From: Chitinophagaceae bacterium
Lineage (GTDB): Bacteria; Bacteroidota; Bacteroidia; Chitinophagales; UBA10324
Direction of reading: 5' to 3'
Length of the DNA: 64,000 nucleotides
NCBI GenBank assembly: GCA_947469485.1
Contig: CANIPU010000003.1
Location: 132,870 to 196,869 of the forward strand
Below, in pieces: positions 20,345-29,248 of this stretch (its first letter is position 1; every line of letters begins with the position of its first letter). The notes beneath the pieces were generated by a model, which saw nothing but the letters and a program-made list of their open reading frames with translations, had not been told where the DNA came from and made no database searches. The position numbers were made by a program, and so were the translations under genes.

Positions 20345-21739
20345 TCACTCCACAACAATTTTCTTTCTAAGAATATTATTCTGCTCATCTCTGAGTTCGC
20401 AGAAATAAACTCCGCTTTTTACAGGAAGTGTAACAGTTGTTGAGGCATCAGTAATTTCTGTTTCATAAATTTTCTCTCCCAGTAAATTATAAATCTCAAT
20501 CATCTGGTTGGCGTTGGTTTCAACTGTGAAATTTCCATTTGAAGGATTCGGATAAATATTTAAGTAGGTAGAATTTACTTCCACCACTCCTGCTGCATTA
20601 TGTGTGATTTCAAATTCAGAGGAGCAGGTATCACCATTGTAAACAGCGCGGAAAGTATAAATGCCATCTGTCGTAGGCAGCACTTTTGAATAAGCCCATA
20701 AGCCCACCAGGGTGCTTGCATTGCTGGTGTAAGTCCAATTGAGATAAGTTGACCCGTTCGGATTCAGAATACTTATATCGGCAATCAGTCCGCTCACTTC
20801 ATTGCGAAGGAAAATATAAAACTTCGCATAGCCGGGAGCTAAGCTTGGACCCTGAAACGGAATCTGATAAGTGGTGCTTTCATTCGGAGTTTCAGTAGCG
20901 GGGCATGCCGGAAAAACCGCATCAGTAATATTTACCGATACTTTTATTACCGCTGTTTCTAAATAGGATTTCTGAGCAGCCCACCACGATGAAGCGTTTA
21001 ACAAATTGCAAGTACCTGAGAAAGGGTCAACTCTTGTTGCCGCTGTGTTGCCGCTCCATATTTCAAAATGCAGGTGTGGTCCCGATGAGCTTCCTGAACT
21101 TCCAACCACTCCGATATGATCTCCCGTTGCAACCGGCTGACCAATGGCCACCGAAGTAATCGAATTCTTTTTCATGTGCCAGTACAAAACAGTTGAACCA
21201 TCTGCGTGCTGAACTATGACATAATTAGCTGTTAATCCGCTGCCAACTCCAACACAATTTTTGTCGAACTCGCCATCGTGTTTATCAATAATAATTCCTG
21301 GCGCGGCCGCAACTACTTCTACTAAATCATTGTCCATCTTTACAAAAGGATAGGGCCATATAGCAATATCGGTTCCGCCATGACCATCGTAAGCAATTGT
21401 TCCGCAGTTATAATCCTGAAAGGCGCCACTGGCTGTATTCTGGTCAACATGTGCTGAAATAAAGTAGTAACTGCAATCGTGCAAATTCACTGATGGCTTC
21501 AGTGGCCACTGCAACAGAGTAACAGCGCGGCCTCCGCTCGCGAATGAACTGCTGTCAATGTGCAGTGCTTTCATATTGTCACTTATTCGTTTTTCAATCA
21601 GTGTATATTCCAGTGCAGAAATACAAGGGTTGCTTGCATCAGTTTCTGTAACCGTATTTATTTCAGAAAGATTTTGCGCCTGGGTTTTAATAGTAAACAC
21701 GGCACACAAAACAACGAGTGTAAAAATTCTTTTCATCAT
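20345..21739 (-). CDS. M23 family metallopeptidase with T9SS C-terminal sorting domain
   Basis: HxxxD/HxH series: GHGGTDIA...GDHIGVVGSSGSSSGPHLHFEIW. C-terminal IYPNPSNGNFTVE...GVYFCEL...KIVVE. Confidence 0.85.
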   Translation of the reverse strand: MMKRIFTLVVLCAVFTIKTQAQNLSEINTVTETDASNPCISALEYTLIEKRISDNMKALHIDSSSFASGGRAVTLLQWPLKPSVNLHDCSYYFISAHVDQNTASGAFQDYNCGTIAYDGHGGTDIAIWPYPFVKMDNDLVEVVAAAPGIIIDKHDGEFDKNCVGVGSGLTANYVIVQHADGSTVLYWHMKKNSITSVAIGQPVATGDHIGVVGSSGSSSGPHLHFEIWSGNTAATRVDPFSGTCNLLNASSWWAAQKSYLETAVIKVSVNITDAVFPACPATETPNESTTYQIPFQGPSLAPGYAKFYIFLRNEVSGLIADISILNPNGSTYLNWTYTSNASTLVGLWAYSKVLPTTDGIYTFRAVYNGDTCSSEFEITHNAAGVVEVNSTYLNIYPNPSNGNFTVETNANQMIEIYNLLGEKIYETEITDASTTVTLPVKSGVYFCELRDEQNNILRKKIVVE

Positions 21740-21846
21740 GGAAAGATTTATACGCAAGTTACCGAATTTCTATTCGTGCCCATGCCCTCCGATATACAAG
21801 TGGCGGTGTTAACTGTACAGTCGGGAGAAGTTTTTAACTCACTGCT

Positions 21847-22470
21847 TTATTGCTTTATCAATTTCGTGCGGCTTATAACAGCACCACCTGAAACCAGTTC
21901 AATAAAATATATTCCTGTTGACAGCGATTGAATATTCAAAACTTCTGTGTTTTTCATTGCCCGGGTCTGATGCAATATTCTTCCCGACAAATCAATAACC
22001 TGAATGGTGTTGCCCGCAAGACGGTTGCTGTGAACAGTTACACGGTCGGCAGCAGGATTTGGATAAACGCGCACATCAGTGTGATAAAATAAATTTTGCA
22101 CTCCCGTTGATGTATCGGCAATGGTAATGGGGAAACTGCATCCCAATGAATCATAGAACATGTAGTAAAGATTCAGGTAGCCGGAGAACGGAAGCACGAG
22201 TGGAGCCATCACCACCATTTCGTGCAGCTGTGGTCCGCCGCCAATGCCGAAGTAGGTCACATTTTCCTTTGCAATGGTATCCATGTTGGAATCAAACAAT
22301 ATAAAGCCGGGATAACCAAACAGCTCCGTTGTTGTATTCGATGCATTGAGTGAAATGGTATCGTTGCCGAGCGTACAGCAATCAATAACCAGCGAATCGC
22401 ACTGCGGAAGATTCTGTGCATGAATAAAAAACGGAACAGAAAAAAAGAATGCGAGAATGTATTTTTTCAT
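21847..22470 (-). CDS. T9SS C-terminal-domain secreted protein, function unknown
   Basis: Signal peptide MKKYILAFFFSVPFFIHAQ. C-terminal VYPNPAADRVTV...GIYFIEL...KLIKQ. Confidence 0.6.
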   Translation of the reverse strand: MKKYILAFFFSVPFFIHAQNLPQCDSLVIDCCTLGNDTISLNASNTTTELFGYPGFILFDSNMDTIAKENVTYFGIGGGPQLHEMVVMAPLVLPFSGYLNLYYMFYDSLGCSFPITIADTSTGVQNLFYHTDVRVYPNPAADRVTVHSNRLAGNTIQVIDLSGRILHQTRAMKNTEVLNIQSLSTGIYFIELVSGGAVISRTKLIKQ

Positions 22471-22551
22471 TGAAGTGGGTTTATTGCAACGCAAGTTAAG
22501 AAAAACAAACCGGCCTGTTTAGTTTTCTCATCACTTGCTATTCCTGTATTT

Positions 22552-22881
22552 TCAACGCGCTGAATACATCACCAGCGTATTTTCTTCATTGCGCAATTTT
22601 TTATCGGTGATAAAAGTTCCGAACGGAATGAGCGAAGCACCAACTCCCACAGCAACACGAAATACCGGCCATCGCTTTGCGCGCCACACATACAGCAGTG
22701 CAGTTATGTATAAGATAAATAATGCGCCATGAATCCATCCGGTTATTAGAACAGCCTCCGGAATATCTGCCAGGTATTTCAGGGGCATGGCAATCAATAA
22801 CAGAAACAGAAAAGAAATTCCTTCAGCAATTCCCGCAATGCGCAATCGACCGATTGCCGTGTTTGAAAATTTAAGACTCAT
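22552..22881 (-). CDS. DUF3817-family membrane protein
   Basis: LRIAGIAEGISFLFLLLIAMPLKY...GWIHGALFILY matches the DUF3817 pattern. 109 aa. Confidence 0.7.
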   Translation of the reverse strand: MSLKFSNTAIGRLRIAGIAEGISFLFLLLIAMPLKYLADIPEAVLITGWIHGALFILYITALLYVWRAKRWPVFRVAVGVGASLIPFGTFITDKKLRNEENTLVMYSAR

Positions 22882-22946
22882 TGTGCAATAATATCATTCA
22901 ATTGCAAATTCATTTTTAGTTTTTGTAATGATACTTGCACTTATTT

Positions 22947-22975
22947 AGTACTTGTATAGACTAAGTACTTTTTTT
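22947..22975. terminator. Terminator-like hairpin at the 3' end of island gene A
   Basis: AGTACTT (22947-22953), a 9-nt loop and AAGTACT (22963-22969), followed by T6 on the + strand. The A-run precedes it on the - strand, so it is canonical only in the + orientation although the adjacent gene is on -. Confidence 0.35.
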
Positions 22976-23565
22976 CATTGCAACGACCATGGAGGTAGTC
23001 CCTTTTTTTTATTTGCACTACTCACCTTTTCATAAACATCCTTTTTTGCTGCTGCAAAAAGTAATCTCATTCGTTGCGCTCCCTCCAGGTAATGTGCTTT
23101 CATTTTTCCGGGTGTGGTTATTTCATACTGAAGATATATTGATGCCGGATTATCTTCTTCTTCCTTTTCAAAATGGTAATCACCTGTGTATTTCAATCCG
23201 AAATTACTTGCAGCTTTTGCAACCGCGCGCTCAAGTTTATCAGGATGAATCCGGATGAACGAATCTTCACTCAGGTAAAGGAGAAACTGAAGTTCAAGAA
23301 AGAACTTTTTATTGGTTCGCTTAATAATCAGCAGGGGATCAGTTTTCAGTAAATCCGGACATTCAACCAGGCACTCACATTTTTTTGGATATAGCTGTTC
23401 ATCAAAATCAAGGAATTCAAAAAATCTTTTTTTTGAAAGTCCTGTCATAGTAATCTCATTCACAAAAAGTTCAGATCGCATACAGTACTTTTTTGCTCGC
23501 CGAAAGAAAACATTAATGGCTGCTTGTTCCTTTGCAGAAACAGACATGTTTCTGAAGAGTGTCAT
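22975..23565 (-). CDS. Hypothetical protein, island paralogue A (unknown family)
   Basis: 196 aa. Alignable with the 192-aa ORF at 23763-24341 through GLSKKRFFEFLDFDEQLYP / GLSKENFYSFLDFDASLYP, ECPDLLK / ECSAPHLK, AKAASNFGL / AKAAKQYGL and EGAQRMRLLF / EGLNRLSQLF. Confidence 0.55.
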   Translation of the reverse strand: MTLFRNMSVSAKEQAAINVFFRRAKKYCMRSELFVNEITMTGLSKKRFFEFLDFDEQLYPKKCECLVECPDLLKTDPLLIIKRTNKKFFLELQFLLYLSEDSFIRIHPDKLERAVAKAASNFGLKYTGDYHFEKEEEDNPASIYLQYEITTPGKMKAHYLEGAQRMRLLFAAAKKDVYEKVSSANKKKGLPPWSLQ

Positions 23566-23669
23566 TCCGAAGAAATTTTATGAATGTAATTATAAATTAA
23601 ATAGGCTGCTTTTAATTTCCTGCCATAGAAAAATCTTTTCATCATTGAAAGAAGAGAAAGTTTCACGCA

Positions 23670-23786
23670 ATGGCTGAAGTCCACTCCACTCAAACCCGCA
23701 GCTACAACATGAACCGCATTAAGAGCAAGAACACCAAACCCGAAATGCTGGTGCGGAAATTTCTATTTCACTTTCTTTTTTCTTAG
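23670..23786 (+). pseudogene. vsr: vsr 5' fragment 1 (very-short-patch repair endonuclease, N-terminal 33 codons only)
   Basis: Below the ORF-track size cut-off. It translates MAEVHSTQTRSYNMNRIKSKNTKPEMLVRKFLF, then the unrelated HFLFS*. RSxNMSxIKxKNTKPEmxVRKxLf is the conserved Vsr N-terminus. The catalytic part is absent. Confidence 0.7.
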
Positions 23787-24341
23787 CGCAATTTCTTTTT
23801 CCATTGCCTCATAATATTTTTCCTCTGCATCGGAAAACAACTGCGACAATCTATTCAATCCTTCTTTGAAATGTTCGGCCATATTACCCTTTGGTGCAAC
23901 ATGGTAATTAATATAGAACTCCAGATTAGTATCAAAGTCTTCCATATCATCCGGGTCCACATATAAGCCATATTGCTTTGCTGCCTTAGCTGCATTCATG
24001 TAAACTTTAACGAGATTGATATTTACTCTGGTGAGTTCCTCTTCAACAATGCAACAAAAATATTTCAATGCTATTTTTTCACCCGGTCTTTCAATATTAA
24101 ATACCGGGTTAATTTTTTTCAAATGTGGGGCTGAACATTCAATTAACATTCTCAGATCATGCGGATAAAGCGATGCATCAAAATCAAGAAACGAATAAAA
24201 ATTTTCTTTCGACAATCCGAAGCATTCAATCGTATTCAGGCAGAAGTCTGCCGACCGCGATAATTTTTCTGCCTTGTTATACAAAGCATCTGCAAGCCGG
24301 CTGTCTTCTTCGCTTTTAAATTCGCTGTCGTTCCTTTTCAT
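23763..24341 (-). CDS. Hypothetical protein, island paralogue B (unknown family)
   Basis: 192 aa, paralogue of 22975-23565. Its stop codon (TAG, 23763-23765) is the complement of Leu codon 32 of vsr fragment 1. Confidence 0.6.
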   Translation of the reverse strand: MKRNDSEFKSEEDSRLADALYNKAEKLSRSADFCLNTIECFGLSKENFYSFLDFDASLYPHDLRMLIECSAPHLKKINPVFNIERPGEKIALKYFCCIVEEELTRVNINLVKVYMNAAKAAKQYGLYVDPDDMEDFDTNLEFYINYHVAPKGNMAEHFKEGLNRLSQLFSDAEEKYYEAMEKEIALRKKKVK

Positions 24342-24401
24342 AATTTTAAAACTTGATTATTAAAAACGAAACTAATTTTAATTTATTATTTATCATGTGT
24401 T

Positions 24402-24518
24402 ATGGCTGATGTGCACAATAGGAAAACCCGCTCTTACAACATGAGCCGCATTAAGGGCAAGAACACAAAGCCCGAAATGCTGGTGCGGAAATTTCTTTTT
24501 GCGCACGGAGAATTATAA
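24402..24518 (+). pseudogene. vsr: vsr 5' fragment 2 (N-terminal 36 codons only)
   Basis: It translates MADVHNRKTRSYNMSRIKGKNTKPEMLVRKFLFAHG, then EL**. It stops where an intact Vsr would continue with the F/Y-R-Y-R motif. Confidence 0.75.
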
Positions 24519-24566
24519 TGATTGCAGGATAAAAATTTATTATTTACAATTGAGTAATATTCATTT

Positions 24567-24971
24567 ATGATTGAGGTTACTTGTGCAATTATTCTGAAAG
24601 AAAATAAAATCTTAGTAACTCAAAGAAGTGAAAAGATGAAACTGCCTTTGAAGTGGGAGTTTCCCGGAGGAAAGATTGAAAAAAATGAAACAGAAGAAAA
24701 CTGTTTATTAAGAGAGATAAAAGAAGAACTCAATTTAGAAATTGAAATCATAGAAAAATTAGAATCAAAAAGTTTTGATTATGAAACTTTCTCAATAAAT
24801 CTCATTCCGTTTGTTGCAAAGTATTTGAAAGGTGAAATTGTTTTAAGTGAGCATAAAGATTTCAAGTGGTTAACGAAAGAAGAGTTAAAATTTTTGGATT
24901 GGGCTGCTGCTGATATTCCTGTATTAGATGAATATTTAAAATTGAATTATGATGAATCAAGGGCTCTATGA
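24567..24971 (+). CDS. NUDIX hydrolase, MutT/NudG-like (deoxy)nucleoside triphosphate pyrophosphohydrolase
   Basis: Nudix box GGKIEKNETEENCLLREIKEELNL (Gx5Ex7REUxEExGU, with N at the last G). WEFPGGK and the AIILKENKILVTQR N-terminus are typical of the MutT/NudG subgroup. The last 23 nt overlap the downstream gene. Confidence 0.85.
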   Translation: MIEVTCAIILKENKILVTQRSEKMKLPLKWEFPGGKIEKNETEENCLLREIKEELNLEIEIIEKLESKSFDYETFSINLIPFVAKYLKGEIVLSEHKDFKWLTKEELKFLDWAAADIPVLDEYLKLNYDESRAL

Positions 24972-27900
24972 GCAACTCATAAACAAAATGATTTTGTCCA
25001 AGCTAAATGAATTGGACAGAAATAAATTTCACATAAAGGAAAGTGAGATTGACAAGAGTGAAGCCGCAAGAATTCTATCCCAATATTTAGGGGAAGTAAT
25101 TCAATTTGGTCTTAATTCAATTTCAGGTGATGATAGTATTGAAAAGCAAATTGAACTATCGAACAAAATAATTTCCCTTCTGAGAACGGAGTTGAAAGAC
25201 GAAGAGTTTGATGAGGATTTGATTGCTACAGAAGCAAAAATTCTTTCAGCAATATTTAAAAAGCTTGATGCAAAGTTTTCTGACTTTGAAAAACATCTCA
25301 AAGAAATAACTCCTTATACAAGATTATCACAAAGCGAATTGTTCACTGGAAACAATGCGGGCATTTCTCTTGAAAGCGAAATCAAAAAAGAAATTCTTTC
25401 ATCTGATAAAATCAATTTCCTTGTTTCATTTATAAAGTGGACTGGAATAAGAATATTTGAAAAGGAATTATTTGAATTCACAGAAAGAGGCGGACTATTA
25501 AAAGTGATTACTACTTCATACATGGGTGCTACTGATTTGAAGGCAGTAGAATATTTATCAAGTTTGAAGAATACAGAAATCAAAGTTTCATATAACACAG
25601 ACAATGAAAGGTTACACGCAAAAGCATATTTGTTTTTGCGAGATACAGGATTTCATACTGGCTACATAGGTTCATCAAATATTTCTCGTTCTGCACTTAC
25701 AAATGGTTTAGAGTGGAATCTTAAAGTGACAACAAAAGAGGTTGGACATATCATTGATAAATTCCAAAAGACATTTGAAACTTATTGGTTGGATAAGGAA
25801 TTTGAATTGTTTGACAAAACAATTCATACAGAGAAGTTAAGGATTGCTTTAAAGACAGAGAGAATACATGAACGAAATAATCCTGCTGCTTACTTTGATA
25901 TAAAACCATTTCCTTTTCAAGAAGAGATTCTTGAAAAGTTAGAGACAGAAAGAATTGTCCACAACCGCTTTAGAAATTTAATTATTGCTGCAACAGGAAC
26001 GGGCAAAACAGTTATTTCTGCATTTGATTTCAAGAACTTTAAGAAGAAAAATCCATCAGCAAAACTTTTGTTTGTCGCACACCGAAAAGAAATATTGCAA
26101 CAAGCACAAGCAACATTTCAAGGAATTTTGAAAGACAACAATTTTGGAGAGTTGTGGGTTGACGGACTTGAACCTGAAAAATATGATTGTGTTTTTGCTT
26201 CTGTTCAAACACTAAATAATAGGATTGCCACACTGAATCTTTCAGAATCATTTTATGATTTCATTATTGTAGATGAGGTTCATCACATTGCAGCTTCAAG
26301 TTATCGTCCGATTTTAAATCGGTTCAAACCCAAAATTCTTTTGGGATTAACTGCAACTCCTGAGAGAATGGATGGAGAAGATATTCTAAAAGATTTCTGT
26401 GATACGATTGCTGCTGAAATCAGATTGCCGGAAGCATTAAACAGAAAATTGCTGTGTCCATTTCAGTATTTCGGTATTACAGATAGTGTTGACTTGTCAA
26501 ATGCCACATGGCAAAATGGAAAATACTTGCCAAGTGAACTCACAAGAATTTATACTCAAAATGATAAACGAATTGGAGAAATAATTTCTAACCTCAATAA
26601 ATATCTTAGAGATATTAATGATGTAAGAGCACTTTGCTTTTGTGTCACTCAAGAACATGCTCAGTTCATGGCAGAGAAATTTTCACTTGCTGGATTGAAA
26701 GCTGATTATTTAGTAAGTTCAAGAAATGAATTGAGAGAAGAGTTAAGACGAAAATTTTTAAGCAAGGAAATCAATTACCTTTTTGTAGTTGACATATTTA
26801 ATGAGGGAGTTGATATACCAGACATTGATACAATTTTATTTCTCAGACCAACAGAAAGCTTAACTGTATTTCTCCAACAACTTGGAAGAGGATTGAGATT
26901 AGCTGAGGGCAAGGAGTGTTTGACCGTTTTAGATTTCGTTGGCAACTCACGACCCGAATATGATTTTGAAAACAAGTTCAGGGCACTGGTAGGAAAAACA
27001 AATACAGCAATTCAAAAAGAGATTGAAGATGATTTTCCGCATTTGCCTTTAGGATGCACAATTGTATTGGAGAAAAAAGCAAAAAAGTTTATTCTACAGA
27101 ATATTTATAATGCAACTCTTCATAACAGAAATCAATTGCTTACTAAAATTCGAAACTACAAGCATCAAACAACACTACCTCTTTCTCTAAAAAACTTTTC
27201 AAATTTTTATCATATTCCTCTGCAATACATTTATAAGAGAGGGAACTGGAAAAGACTGTGTGCTGACGCTGAACAAATTGAAAACTATCCAACAACAAAT
27301 GAAAATGAAATTAAAAGAGCCATCAGTAACAAGTGGCTTTCATGCAATTCAAATTCTTACTTCCAATTTATTTTATCATTAGCAAAAAAGAATTTCAATA
27401 TCAATTTAAACAATCTTAATGATGAAGAAAAGTCAATGTACTTAATGCTTCATTATGATATTTGGCAAGATGAGGGTGGTTTCGATTCTCTAGAAGAAAG
27501 TATCAAATCGATTGGGAAGAATAAAGCATTGACAGAAGAAATAATTGAAGTCCTTGAAATACTAATTGACAAAATTGATTTTCTTGAAAGAGAAATTAAG
27601 CTTTCATATTCTCAACCACTTAAACTTCATAGTAGATATACGCGCGAACAAATATTAGCCGCATTTGAATTTCACACCTTCAATAAAAAATCATCAAATC
27701 GAGAAGGAGTTGCTGAGAATAAAAAAACAAAGACTGAATTACTTTTTGTTGAACTAATAAAATCTGAAAAAGATTTTTCTCCATCTACTCTTTATAAAGA
27801 TTATGCTGTAAGTGAGAAAATATTTCATTGGCAATCTCAAAATTCTGCAATGCCAGAAAGTGGCAAAGGACTCTCTTATATCACTCACAAAGTAGATGAC

Positions 27901-28089
27901 AAAACTGTTTTACTTTTTGTAAGAGAGAGAAATGCAGATGAGTTTGGAATAACTATGTCCTATGTTTTTTTAGGCGAGGTTACCTATAAGGATCATTATG
28001 GAAGAAAGCCAATGAGTATTAATTGGGAATTAAAAGAACCTATTCCACCATATTTATTAAAGGATTCTGTTAAGATGGCGGTAGGATAA
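24949..28089 (+). CDS. SauUSI-like PLD-nuclease / SF2 helicase / DUF3427 protein (candidate type IV modification-dependent restriction enzyme)
   Basis: 1046 aa. PLD motif is ERLHAKAYLF...YIGSSNISRSAL (His codon near 25615). Walker A is AATGTGKT (about 25987-26010) and the DEAH box is VDEVHH (about 26272-26286). Helicase C strings are VDIFNEGVDIPDIDTILFLRPTES...QQLGRGLR. The C-terminal ~250 aa (PLKLHSRYTREQILAAFEF...HWQSQNS) resembles DUF3427. Confidence 0.8.
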   Translation: MMNQGLYEQLINKMILSKLNELDRNKFHIKESEIDKSEAARILSQYLGEVIQFGLNSISGDDSIEKQIELSNKIISLLRTELKDEEFDEDLIATEAKILSAIFKKLDAKFSDFEKHLKEITPYTRLSQSELFTGNNAGISLESEIKKEILSSDKINFLVSFIKWTGIRIFEKELFEFTERGGLLKVITTSYMGATDLKAVEYLSSLKNTEIKVSYNTDNERLHAKAYLFLRDTGFHTGYIGSSNISRSALTNGLEWNLKVTTKEVGHIIDKFQKTFETYWLDKEFELFDKTIHTEKLRIALKTERIHERNNPAAYFDIKPFPFQEEILEKLETERIVHNRFRNLIIAATGTGKTVISAFDFKNFKKKNPSAKLLFVAHRKEILQQAQATFQGILKDNNFGELWVDGLEPEKYDCVFASVQTLNNRIATLNLSESFYDFIIVDEVHHIAASSYRPILNRFKPKILLGLTATPERMDGEDILKDFCDTIAAEIRLPEALNRKLLCPFQYFGITDSVDLSNATWQNGKYLPSELTRIYTQNDKRIGEIISNLNKYLRDINDVRALCFCVTQEHAQFMAEKFSLAGLKADYLVSSRNELREELRRKFLSKEINYLFVVDIFNEGVDIPDIDTILFLRPTESLTVFLQQLGRGLRLAEGKECLTVLDFVGNSRPEYDFENKFRALVGKTNTAIQKEIEDDFPHLPLGCTIVLEKKAKKFILQNIYNATLHNRNQLLTKIRNYKHQTTLPLSLKNFSNFYHIPLQYIYKRGNWKRLCADAEQIENYPTTNENEIKRAISNKWLSCNSNSYFQFILSLAKKNFNINLNNLNDEEKSMYLMLHYDIWQDEGGFDSLEESIKSIGKNKALTEEIIEVLEILIDKIDFLEREIKLSYSQPLKLHSRYTREQILAAFEFHTFNKKSSNREGVAENKKTKTELLFVELIKSEKDFSPSTLYKDYAVSEKIFHWQSQNSAMPESGKGLSYITHKVDDKTVLLFVRERNADEFGITMSYVFLGEVTYKDHYGRKPMSINWELKEPIPPYLLKDSVKMAVG

Positions 28090-28476
28090 TTCTATCTTGC
28101 TTGCAAACTCATCGAATATCTTTTTTGCTTTTTCCAAATCTTTTTCATTGGCAATTTCATTTGGCAAATAAATTTCAGTCCATGAGTAAATTCTGTTTTT
28201 ATTAAGCGGAAATCTTTCACGCACATTAAAACCTTTCCGCTCTGCGATTGACCTTATTTTTTTGGGAATTAGTCCTTCACACATAATACACCAACATGGT
28301 TTAAGACCATTAAATTTTTCAGAGAAATGAGAATGAAATCCAGAACTACTTGTTAGAATTCTAAATTTATTTAAAACGCCAACTGCCTTATAGACTGGTG
28401 TTTCAATATATGCGTCAACATCAGGATTATATATTTCTGTAAATCCTTCTTGATTAATTCTTTCCTGCAATTTCAT
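28057..28476 (-). CDS. Hypothetical protein (139 aa), convergent with and overlapping the SauUSI-like gene by 33 bp
   Basis: ORF-track ORF; no family was recognised. Contains a CWCIMCEG cysteine cluster. Its 3' end overlaps 28057-28089. Confidence 0.45.
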   Translation of the reverse strand: MKLQERINQEGFTEIYNPDVDAYIETPVYKAVGVLNKFRILTSSSGFHSHFSEKFNGLKPCWCIMCEGLIPKKIRSIAERKGFNVRERFPLNKNRIYSWTEIYLPNEIANEKDLEKAKKIFDEFASKIELSYRHLNRIL

Positions 28477-28527
28477 TTCATAAAAAAAGTAAAAAGGGTT
28501 TTTCCATCCAACGGACTATACGCACCA

Positions 28528-28698
28528 TCACAATTTCCTTTTCTCCAATCTTACAGCACGCTCGCCGGTACGGTACCACTGATTGTTTTTGCGCACCCAA
28601 AAAGTTTTTGAAAGAAAATAGTACTTACCCTCCTCCCCTATCTGCCATTTCAGTAACAGTAGCTGTAACAGCAAAGAGGAAGATAAATTAAATTTCAT
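28528..28698 (-). CDS. Possible small ORF (56 aa)
   Basis: Below the ORF-track cut-off. My translation is MKFNLSSSLLLQLLLLKWQIGEEGKYYFLSKTFWVRKNNQWYRTGERAVRLEKRKL. It has protein-like composition, is on the same strand as both neighbours and ends 51 nt upstream of the 139-aa ORF. Confidence 0.25.
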   Translation of the reverse strand: MKFNLSSSLLLQLLLLKWQIGEEGKYYFLSKTFWVRKNNQWYRTGERAVRLEKRKL

Positions 28699-28789: not shown

Positions 28790-29248
28790 TTATATTTTTT
28801 CTTTCTCTATTTTTTTATGAAAGTCAAGATACATGGGTAATGCAGCTGAGCCATACCATCTGATCAATTCAACAGCAAATACTTTTTGTTGAATGGCAGG
28901 ATCGGTTTGTAATAGCGCCTGTGCTTCTTCAGTTGTTTGTACATTCAGAATAAAGAGCCCGCGGTATTCTTTATCATTTTTTCCAAACGGACCTGCAACA
29001 AGCAGCTTGCCTGCATCAGCTAAACGATTAATGTTTGCAATATGCCCCCTGAATAAACTATCAGACAAGGCCTTGTCTTCTATTTTATTGGCCCCTGTTT
29101 TCAGAATTACGAATATGTAACTATTCATTCCGTATTCATCGGCTCCCAACGAATCGGCAAGCGTTTTATCATATAGTGGATTACCGGTCTGGCATACTGC
29201 AGCCATACTGTAACTGAGAGAGAGAAAAAGAATTAGAAGGTATTTCAT
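28790..29248 (-). CDS. YciI-family protein with signal peptide
   Basis: IFVILKTG...HIANINRLADAGKLLVAGPFG...GLFILNV.TTEEAQALLQTDPAI matches the YCII-related domain pattern. The N-terminus MKYLLILFLSLSYSMAAVCQ is a signal peptide. Confidence 0.7.
   Translation of the reverse strand: MKYLLILFLSLSYSMAAVCQTGNPLYDKTLADSLGADEYGMNSYIFVILKTGANKIEDKALSDSLFRGHIANINRLADAGKLLVAGPFGKNDKEYRGLFILNVQTTEEAQALLQTDPAIQQKVFAVELIRWYGSAALPMYLDFHKKIEKEKI

Follow-up and report, generated by a model that had tools for sequence, protein, structure and literature searches.

Stacked vsr 5' fragments at a defence-cassette exchange slot of a Chitinophagaceae bacterium: a probable scar array of serial cassette turnover

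Introduction

How do two truncated 5' ends of the same repair gene come to lie one behind the other in a bacterial genome, each paired with a divergent gene of no recognizable family? The question is raised by a stretch of 64,000 nucleotides (nt) from a Chitinophagaceae bacterium (GCA_947469485.1, contig CANIPU010000003.1, positions 132,870 to 196,869; hereafter the window), in which two plus-strand fragments of vsr, the gene of the very-short-patch repair endonuclease, alternate with two minus-strand genes that we refer to as A and B. An earlier note, made from the letters of the window, had argued that two functional vsr genes had each been cut at one and the same spot, and had proposed a recurrent hotspot inside vsr that accumulates cassettes. 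Comparison with sister strains and with other vsr loci led us to a related but different answer: the fragments are probably a scar array, left by serial cassette turnover at a defence-cassette exchange slot that lies between a DUF3817 gene and a YCII-domain gene and has the 5' end of vsr as its left edge.

Results

The two vsr fragments of the window

The elements that raise the question are four, in this order:

22975-23565, minus strand: gene A, 196 amino acids (aa), a member of an orphan family that we call X
23670-23768, plus strand: vsr stub 1, codons 1-33 (Pfam Vsr, 33.6 bits); its open reading frame (ORF) runs to 23786 and the stub ends at the stop codon of B
23763-24341, minus strand: gene B, 192 aa, a paralogue of A, divergent from the vsr position
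24402-24539, plus strand: vsr stub 2, vsr-derived DNA (Pfam Vsr, 38.7 bits, and junction analysis); its ORF ends at 24518

The short ORFs at 23670-23786 and 24402-24518 encode the N-terminus of Vsr, with the peptides that the earlier note had quoted. Both exceeded the cut-off of 27 bits for the Pfam Vsr family (PF03852), over profile positions 1-35 of 74, and both matched positions 1-36 of TIGR00632 at 28-29 bits, far under the full-length cut-off of 97.85. A tblastn search with the intact Vsr of a sister strain identified no further vsr piece in the 64 kb, in agreement with the earlier failure to find a remainder. The catalytic residues Asp51, His64 and His69 (GKPD...HGCFWH motifs) were invariant in seven intact relatives of Vsr; this core is missing from both stubs, which end at codons 33 and ~46, and the search for it covered the whole window. 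The stubs are thus fragments of vsr genes and not Vsr enzymes.

Stub 1 was found in every sister strain, its vsr-derived part stopping at nt 96-99. As had been noticed, it ends at the stop codon of B, which at 23763-23765 corresponds to nt 94-96 of the fragment. Stub 2 proved to be longer than its ORF. Its nt 1-107 are contiguous with vsr, and megablast homology to the HpaII-like allele described below stops at 24508. The following 13 nt (24509-24521, AGAATTATAATGA) are a scrambled patch with TAA TGA, which stands in place of vsr nt 108-120 and shares 4 of 13 bases with them. Beyond the patch, however, the register of vsr is resumed without a shift: 16 of the 18 bases of 24522-24539 agree with vsr nt 121-138, a score attained in 0 of 200,000 shuffles, and sensitive blastn of stub 2 against the other three alleles extended to 24535-24539. 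The vsr-derived DNA of stub 2 ends at about nt 138 (~codon 46), 27 nt ahead of the start of the NUDIX gene that follows. The claim that the two breakpoints lie within 9 nt of the same vsr position therefore fails, as copy 1 ends at codon 33 and copy 2 continues past the scrambled patch. In another locus, L017, an in-frame TGA is inserted after Gly36 (1074-1076 region), the same place as the patch in stub 2.

An assembly error was considered as an explanation for the arrangement and was rejected, as it is 100% identical in two contigs that cover both stubs (L001 and L007); the junction of stub 2 with the NUDIX gene is 100% identical in seven further contigs. The sequence upstream of the NUDIX gene in the window has nothing in common with the corresponding regions of 15 other genomes, which indicates that the junction is specific to this lineage.

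Alternative cassettes at one slot

Contigs from sister strains of the same species were gathered by searching for exact copies of the A, B and NUDIX proteins. Identity in the flanks is ~99.5% (range 98-100%; left flanks ~98-99.8%), and B is identical or nearly so. By contrast with these flanks, the slot between B and the YCII gene has at least four alternative contents, as judged by re-running Pfam on the genes of each allele:

Allele i, HpaII-like V-C-M-R (L002-L005, L009, L010, L196-198, L203): intact vsr of 137 aa, HTH controller, C5 methyltransferase, R.HpaII-family nuclease and two small ORFs
Allele ii, MspI-like V-M-R-C (L200-L202): intact vsr of 138 aa, C5 methyltransferase, MspI-family nuclease and HTH gene
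Allele iii, McrBC-like (L199): vsr stub of 66 codons (67-aa ORF, vsr to nt ~199), then an McrB-like (MrcB_N) and DUF2357/PDDEXK_7 pair
Allele iv (the window, L001, L007): vsr stub, NUDIX gene, SauUSI-like PLD-helicase-DUF3427 protein and 139-aa ORF

Sister strains have an intact copy of the vsr gene whose 5' end is stub 2; there it heads restriction-modification (R-M) operons in two allelic forms, HpaII-like and MspI-like. At this slot an intact vsr was found only with a C5 methyltransferase and a stub only with a methyl-dependent nuclease. This pairing fits the toxicity of SauUSI in Dcm+ cells (PMC3141236), as well as the general conflict between methyl-specific type IV enzymes (McrBC, McrA, SauUSI) and C5 methyltransferases (Ishikawa, Fukuda & Kobayashi 2010, PMC2993543; Xu et al. 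2011, PMC3141236). Alleles i and iv co-occur in a single sample (L002 and L036, both from ERZ28593093). Contigs with allele iv break inside B, the adjoining intergenic region or stub 2, as would be expected at a branch of the assembly graph. The two small ORFs at the right end of allele i (108 and 98 aa; 5345-6028 in L004) have no Pfam family and are absent from the other three alleles.

The cassette that allele iv places behind stub 2 consists of three genes:

24567-24971, plus strand: NUDIX hydrolase, partner gene (PF00293, E 8e-19; PADLOC PDC-S07, E 5e-51)
24949-28089, plus strand: SauUSI-like type IV enzyme with PLDc_2, ResIII, Helicase_C and DUF3427 domains (PADLOC mREase_IV, E 6e-227)
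28057-28476, minus strand: 139-aa ORF at the right end of the cassette, without a family in Pfam, NCBIfam or PADLOC; it overlaps the last 33 nt of the helicase gene

The large protein is predicted to be a SauUSI-like, methylcytosine-dependent type IV restriction enzyme. It unites a PLD domain (PLDc_2, residues 172-280), an SF2 helicase (ResIII, 318-473; Helicase_C, 548-651) and DUF3427 (783-1037) in one polypeptide, of which the mREase_IV match covers residues 120-1034. Both this order of domains and the linked NUDIX gene are as described for SauUSI (PMC3141236). The NUDIX/MutT-like gene overlaps the start of the helicase gene, and such a gene adjoins most of 75 helicase homologues. The cassette has a GC content of ~0.32, compared with ~0.42 in the flank, and homologues of the helicase at 77-89% identity were found throughout the Bacteroidota and also in metagenome-assembled genomes (MAGs) of other phyla; together these observations indicated horizontal spread of the cassette. 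The 139-aa ORF was beside none of the 75 homologues examined and is thus specific to this version of the cassette.

Mosaic stubs and gene conversion

Between the window and L004, which carries allele i, 21 of the 23 differences in 1,628 nt fall within the two 99-nt stubs. Stub 1 exists as two haplotypes distinguished by six linked single-nucleotide polymorphisms in 26 nt (23713-23738), and the variant block has exactly the sequence of the MspI-type vsr allele at nt 40-69. The variant block was seen with alleles i, ii and iii and the window-type block with alleles i and iv, so that the haplotype is uncorrelated with cassette state. The block is a short gene-conversion tract between stub 1 and a copy of vsr. 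The 5' ends of vsr as a whole fall into at least four sequence types, which are re-assorted among loci.

These traces change how the two stubs of the window are to be compared. They are 84% identical, and our alignment reproduced the 16 differences in the first 99 nt, with 11 differing codons, five of them synonymous (including an AGC/TCT switch) and six non-synonymous. The 26-mer that the stubs share is likewise identical in both and occurs twice in the window, against 0 expected. The earlier note had concluded from the codon differences that the fragments diverged under protein-level selection as two functional vsr genes. We found no clean evidence for this: as the stubs are mosaics shuffled by recombination and gene conversion, a mixture of synonymous and non-synonymous changes is no clean sign of independent descent.

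An empty site, and the positions of the breaks

One pair of loci shows a vsr gene with and without an X gene. In a Chitinophagaceae MAG, L021, an intact vsr-C-M-R.HpaII operon directly follows the upstream region, and no X gene intervenes. L020 differs by a 696-nt insert, made up of the X gene of protein P0012 and intergenic DNA. On each side of the insert stands a copy of a 76-nt stretch of vsr, from -4 to +72; L021, the empty site, has this stretch once, and both copies align to it. Across loci, the starts of the repeated vsr segments vary between the ATG and a point ~85 nt upstream.

The same upstream region can be recognized in the window, and the segments that bear on its layout are as follows:

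22909-22975, plus strand: remnant of the native region that lay ahead of vsr, with 88% identity over 67 nt to the DNA just upstream of the intact vsr in L021
23566-23669: intergenic region between A and stub 1, unalignable with the region between B and stub 2
24342-24401: intergenic region between B and vsr, common to all four alleles

The remnant stops ~6 nt before the expected ATG of vsr and abuts the stop codon of A; its sequence also precedes the leftmost stub in L018 and L020. Gene A and its intergenic DNA lie between the native upstream region and stub 1 without a duplication, and the B unit follows vsr nt 99. Local alignment of the A unit with the B unit recovered only the 99-nt vsr piece. 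The region between B and vsr presumably holds divergent promoters. Over 22500-24700 no intrinsic terminator was predicted, and sigma-70 promoter matches were at chance level in a scan whose model is ill-suited to Bacteroidota promoters.

A junction can also recur in different surroundings, as L042 and L053 have the same junction of vsr (codon 57) with NUDIX, with homology that starts at ~nt 27 inside the stub and unrelated left flanks. The stubs at the locus of the window end at nt ~99, ~138 and ~199, and those elsewhere at codons 22-108, with a mode around codons 33-36. The idea that both copies were cut at the same spot is contradicted by these positions. What stood of the proposed hotspot is its recurrence: the 5' region of vsr is the left edge of an exchange slot here, and stacked stubs occur elsewhere, but there is no single cut site.

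Some of the ends lie next to restriction sites. Over its 5'-most 200 nt the intact vsr linked to HpaII has a single GCGC (nt 100) and a single CCGG (nt 140), and the ends of stub 1 and stub 2 (23768/23769 and 24539/24540) are 1-2 nt before GCGC and CCGG, respectively; the right-hand stub of L017 (~1041) ends exactly at C|CGG. The chance of such proximity to CCGG is ~0.014 per junction, for a pattern that was spotted after the fact, and the junctions of L199, L047, L112 and L028 do not fit it. Integrase, transposase and recombinase families were all absent from the called genes within ±10 kb of the locus.

Genes A and B belong to a rare family

That A and B are distant paralogues was borne out (31% identity, E 6e-26; nucleotide identity 47% over aligned codons), as was the earlier failure to assign them, since no family of Pfam, NCBIfam, PADLOC or PHROGs covers either. 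In every strain the two reading frames are intact, and polymorphism is too sparse to gauge selection. A profile search of 1.84 billion representative proteins identified 14 relatives beyond A and B (E 2.5e-8 to 7e-4, ~185-195 aa), none with a Pfam, PHROG or PADLOC family. Word-indexed homologue searches with alignments of A and B, of all 16 members and of a five-member subfamily returned only the queries themselves.

The subfamily of five (A, B, P0004, P0010 and P0012) has 18-40% mutual identity, comes from related Chitinophagaceae-like genomes and is linked to vsr: all of its members are divergently upstream of a vsr start, and in four of the five (L017, L018/L019, L020 and B of the window) the stop codon of the X gene directly adjoins a further vsr 5' stub. 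No vsr was found near P0003 and P0014, the two members of the other subfamily that are on long enough contigs; the contigs of P0005, P0008, P0009 and P0011 are too short to reveal a gene context.

An AlphaFold model of A, built on the 16-sequence alignment (pLDDT 85.9, pTM 0.82), is an alpha/beta structure with a long C-terminal helix. Foldseek searches with the model gave no significant match (best E 0.036 in the PDB and 0.0046 in BFVD, TM-scores at most 0.45), nor did a sequence-profile search of the PDB with A (best E 0.27), and no nuclease or recombinase fold was recognized in the model. The X family is thus very rare and, as predicted, confidently folded and without known relatives. With low confidence, we would guess that the X proteins travel as cargo, as small binding or accessory proteins, and are not the agent of mobility. 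A weak resemblance of A to type III secretion chaperones or YbjN-like proteins (probability at most 0.77, TM at most 0.45) was not relied on, and a weak match of B to the PADLOC "type II nicking endonuclease" (E 0.003) was set aside, as it was not reproduced for A or other members.

Stubs of vsr at other loci

Fragments of vsr precede other defence genes as well. A stub ending at codon 33 is followed by McrBC (L026), one ending at codon 40 by a Schlafen-type helicase (L028) and one ending at codon 79 by an HNH gene (L023); stubs also precede SauUSI-like homologues, among them those of L047, L106 and L112, and outside L106 these end at codons 22, 29 and 57. In the Prolixibacteraceae MAG L106 (1988-2436) two stubs, ending at about codons 24 and 35, are stacked upstream of the SauUSI-like gene; there the repeat extends ~45 nt further upstream into promoter-like sequence, and an X gene is absent. 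The clearest stacked array was found in a Chitinophagales MAG (L155, 1-5297), which reads stub 1-44, PIN, stub 1-81, DUF3800, stub 1-99, HNH and then a different vsr with a C5 methyltransferase. An intact vsr lies upstream of four helicase homologues; in L039, L052, L102 and L108 (1985-2926) it is directly upstream of the helicase gene, or in L108 of the NUDIX gene, and is sometimes divergent.

Among the 80 best vsr loci, extra co-oriented 5' stubs were upstream at 5 of 14 Chitinophagales loci and at 0 of the 66 others. This set is skewed to full-length genes and gives no unbiased distribution of breakpoints. The samples of stubs are biased in general, by the 23-mer probe, by nearness to the helicase or by score; exact 23-mer scans, which identified six loci in genomes and three in metagenomes, favour stubs that keep nt 73-95. 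A literature search identified no account of vsr stub arrays.

Discussion

A scar array left by cassette turnover

We propose that the ancestral state of the slot was a vsr-led 5-methylcytosine (5mC) R-M operon. Successive events would have added or overwritten DNA from within the first ~50 codons of the resident vsr, each leaving a vsr 5' stub together with whatever stood upstream of it, namely an X-family gene. The stubs would pile up because each new junction forms inside the resident vsr and spares what lies to the left. On this proposal A with stub 1 and B with stub 2 would be the left-hand relics of earlier states, and the last event in the lineage would have exchanged a CCGG-type vsr-(C)-M-R cassette for the NUDIX gene and the SauUSI-like cutter of 5mC-containing DNA. 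The latter enzyme would be incompatible with a methyltransferase; vsr would have lost its purpose and been left as a 46-codon stub.

The original junctions may have formed by illegitimate joining, perhaps at restriction breaks. Homologous recombination between strains would then have traded the alleles, its left crossover falling within or next to the conserved 5' segment of vsr; with the crossover so placed, the stub would serve as a portable arm of homology. The order stub, cargo, full vsr is what would result from a Campbell-type or one-sided, homology-anchored integration of DNA with a vsr 5' piece. A broader version of the proposal is that, in the Chitinophagales, the first ~100 nt of vsr are a portable homology arm with which host recombination captures, stacks and swaps cassettes without a recombinase, that the junctions are seeded by restriction breaks, and that X is cargo specialised for this position. 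We regard this broader version as speculative and rather doubtful. If true, it would in effect be integron-like accretion of cassettes without a recombinase.

Several points weigh against serial turnover, although we consider it the probable explanation. No donor or "before" state was found for the A unit or the B unit, so the order of events is a reconstruction. A simple serial model does not predict that A should abut the native upstream region with no stub on its left. Four very divergent X genes end 0-5 nt from the end of a stub, which is tidier than random illegitimate joining. The skew of stub ends to the 5' third of vsr could reflect selection against longer Vsr fragments, or ascertainment. 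In addition, the 5mC specificity of the helicase and the CCGG specificity of the HpaII-like and MspI-like alleles are predictions from family membership.

Alternative explanations

The absence of a stub to the left of A is what would be expected if one ancestral unit (X gene, intergenic DNA and vsr nt 1-99) had been duplicated in tandem, with A and B diverging and gene conversion from the live vsr keeping the stubs alike: the native upstream region should then directly abut the stop codon of A, as it does. Conversion between stub 1 and vsr is directly seen, and the units are of similar length (~790 and 732 nt). Against this, A and B with 31% protein and 47% nucleotide identity, and intergenic regions that cannot be aligned, would require a very old duplication or extreme divergence, whereas flanks are ~99% identical between strains. 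The loci with a single X gene (L017, L018 and L020) have a stub on the far side of it, for which further events would be needed, and stub arrays elsewhere hold unrelated cargo. We therefore consider a tandem duplication unlikely.

The tidiness of the ends could instead suggest a site-specific hotspot at one vsr codon, used by a dedicated mobile element of which X is perhaps the recombinase or nuclease. The stubs of B, P0010 and L026 have their ends within nt 97-100, the ends of X genes coincide exactly with those of stubs, and the 26-mer is identical in both copies. Such an element is nevertheless very unlikely, given that stub ends span codons 22-108 and fall at nt 99, 138 and 199 at this locus alone, that the repeats begin on the left at variable positions, from 0 to about -85, that the model of X has no match to a nuclease or recombinase fold, that some stub arrays have no X gene and that no recombinase was called nearby. 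It is also conceivable that the stubs were kept for a function: they might serve the cassette as promoter and leader, regulate vsr by giving the B mRNA an antisense 3' tail, or encode an N-terminal Vsr peptide acting on MutL. The N-terminus of Vsr is needed for its interplay with MutL, the reading frame is open from the ATG in both stubs of the window, stubs are retained next to X genes that share only 26-40% identity, and no terminator was predicted between the stop codon of B and stub 1. But the stubs of L017 and L018 have frameshifting insertions, the right-hand stub of L017 has an in-frame stop, stub lengths vary widely, and the observed gene conversion already explains their persistence; of the explanations weighed here, function is the one to which we give the least credence.

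Comparison with known systems

The processes invoked for a scar array are known in kind, as R-M allelic substitution and as insertion with long target duplication; new are vsr as a consistent boundary, stub arrays enriched in one lineage and an orphan family at this position. The immigration control region of E. coli is a further case of allelic substitution among restriction systems. Restriction systems of different types are swapped at one locus in allelic substitution (Furuta, Abe & Kobayashi 2010, PMC2853133), and the window resembles it in that the cassettes found between conserved flanks in closely related genomes are unrelated R-M or type IV systems, with deviant composition and homologues in distant taxa. 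It differs in that the left boundary lies inside vsr, itself a gene of the cassette, so that each turnover leaves a 5' stub recording the history of the locus, and in that the alternatives are specifically systems that write 5mC and systems that cut DNA containing it.

Insertion with long target duplication (Nobusato 2000; Furuta 2010, PMC2853133) is recognized by direct repeats of >30 bp that both align to one copy at an empty site, which is what L020 displays relative to L021: an insert with a 76-nt direct repeat and no mobility gene. The B unit and its 99-nt repeat have the same form; the repeats are present in the window, but no genome with an empty site for the B unit was found. Unlike in the reported cases, where R and M genes are in the insert, the insert in L020 consists of one X gene and intergenic DNA. 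The target is, moreover, always the 5' end of vsr, and the repeats are diverged or mosaic and not near-identical.

As in the conflict between type IV enzymes and methyltransferases, type IV and 5mC R-M alleles are mutually exclusive at the slot. The exclusion seen here is one of alternative alleles in a natural population, known from their sequences, and not of killing on transfer. Genomic islands accrete in tandem at tRNA genes and leave repeated partial copies of the tRNA gene. The arrays of vsr stubs are similar, with co-oriented partial copies of the target that separate blocks of cargo and with the functional copy, where kept, at one end; however, they have no integrase, no fixed att core and variable repeat limits, and the target is a protein gene of the cargo class. 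An integron or other site-specific cassette system is not indicated, as no recombinase is among the genes called within 10 kb and the boundaries are at differing positions of vsr. Nor is a shufflon or phase-variable R-M system, as all vsr copies are in direct orientation and the same set of genes includes no invertase.

What the locus offers is a natural, within-species view of switching between writing 5mC, at what is predicted to be CCGG, and destroying DNA that bears it, by the swapping of alleles. Stubs that keep the order of past states would make the turnover of a defence locus readable from sequence alone. If the 5' segment of vsr does act as a shared recombination handle, this would explain how unrelated defence genes converge on it without dedicated mobility genes. 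The X proteins are placed at the most recombinogenic point of the locus.

Flanks of the locus

The slot is bounded by the following features:

22552-22881, minus strand: DUF3817 gene, the conserved left flank (PF12823, E 5e-27), present in all sister-strain contigs
28500-28650: right boundary zone of the variable slot, in which the sequence becomes homologous to the other alleles again at 28500, 28524 or 28650
28790-29248, minus strand: YCII-domain gene, the conserved right flank (PF03795), present in every allele that reaches that far

Just to the left of the locus (20345-22494, minus strand) are genes of an M23 peptidase and a 215-aa protein, both with type IX secretion sorting tails. L021 has no DUF3817 gene, and the gene that adjoins its vsr has 94% DNA identity to the gene of the 215-aa protein.

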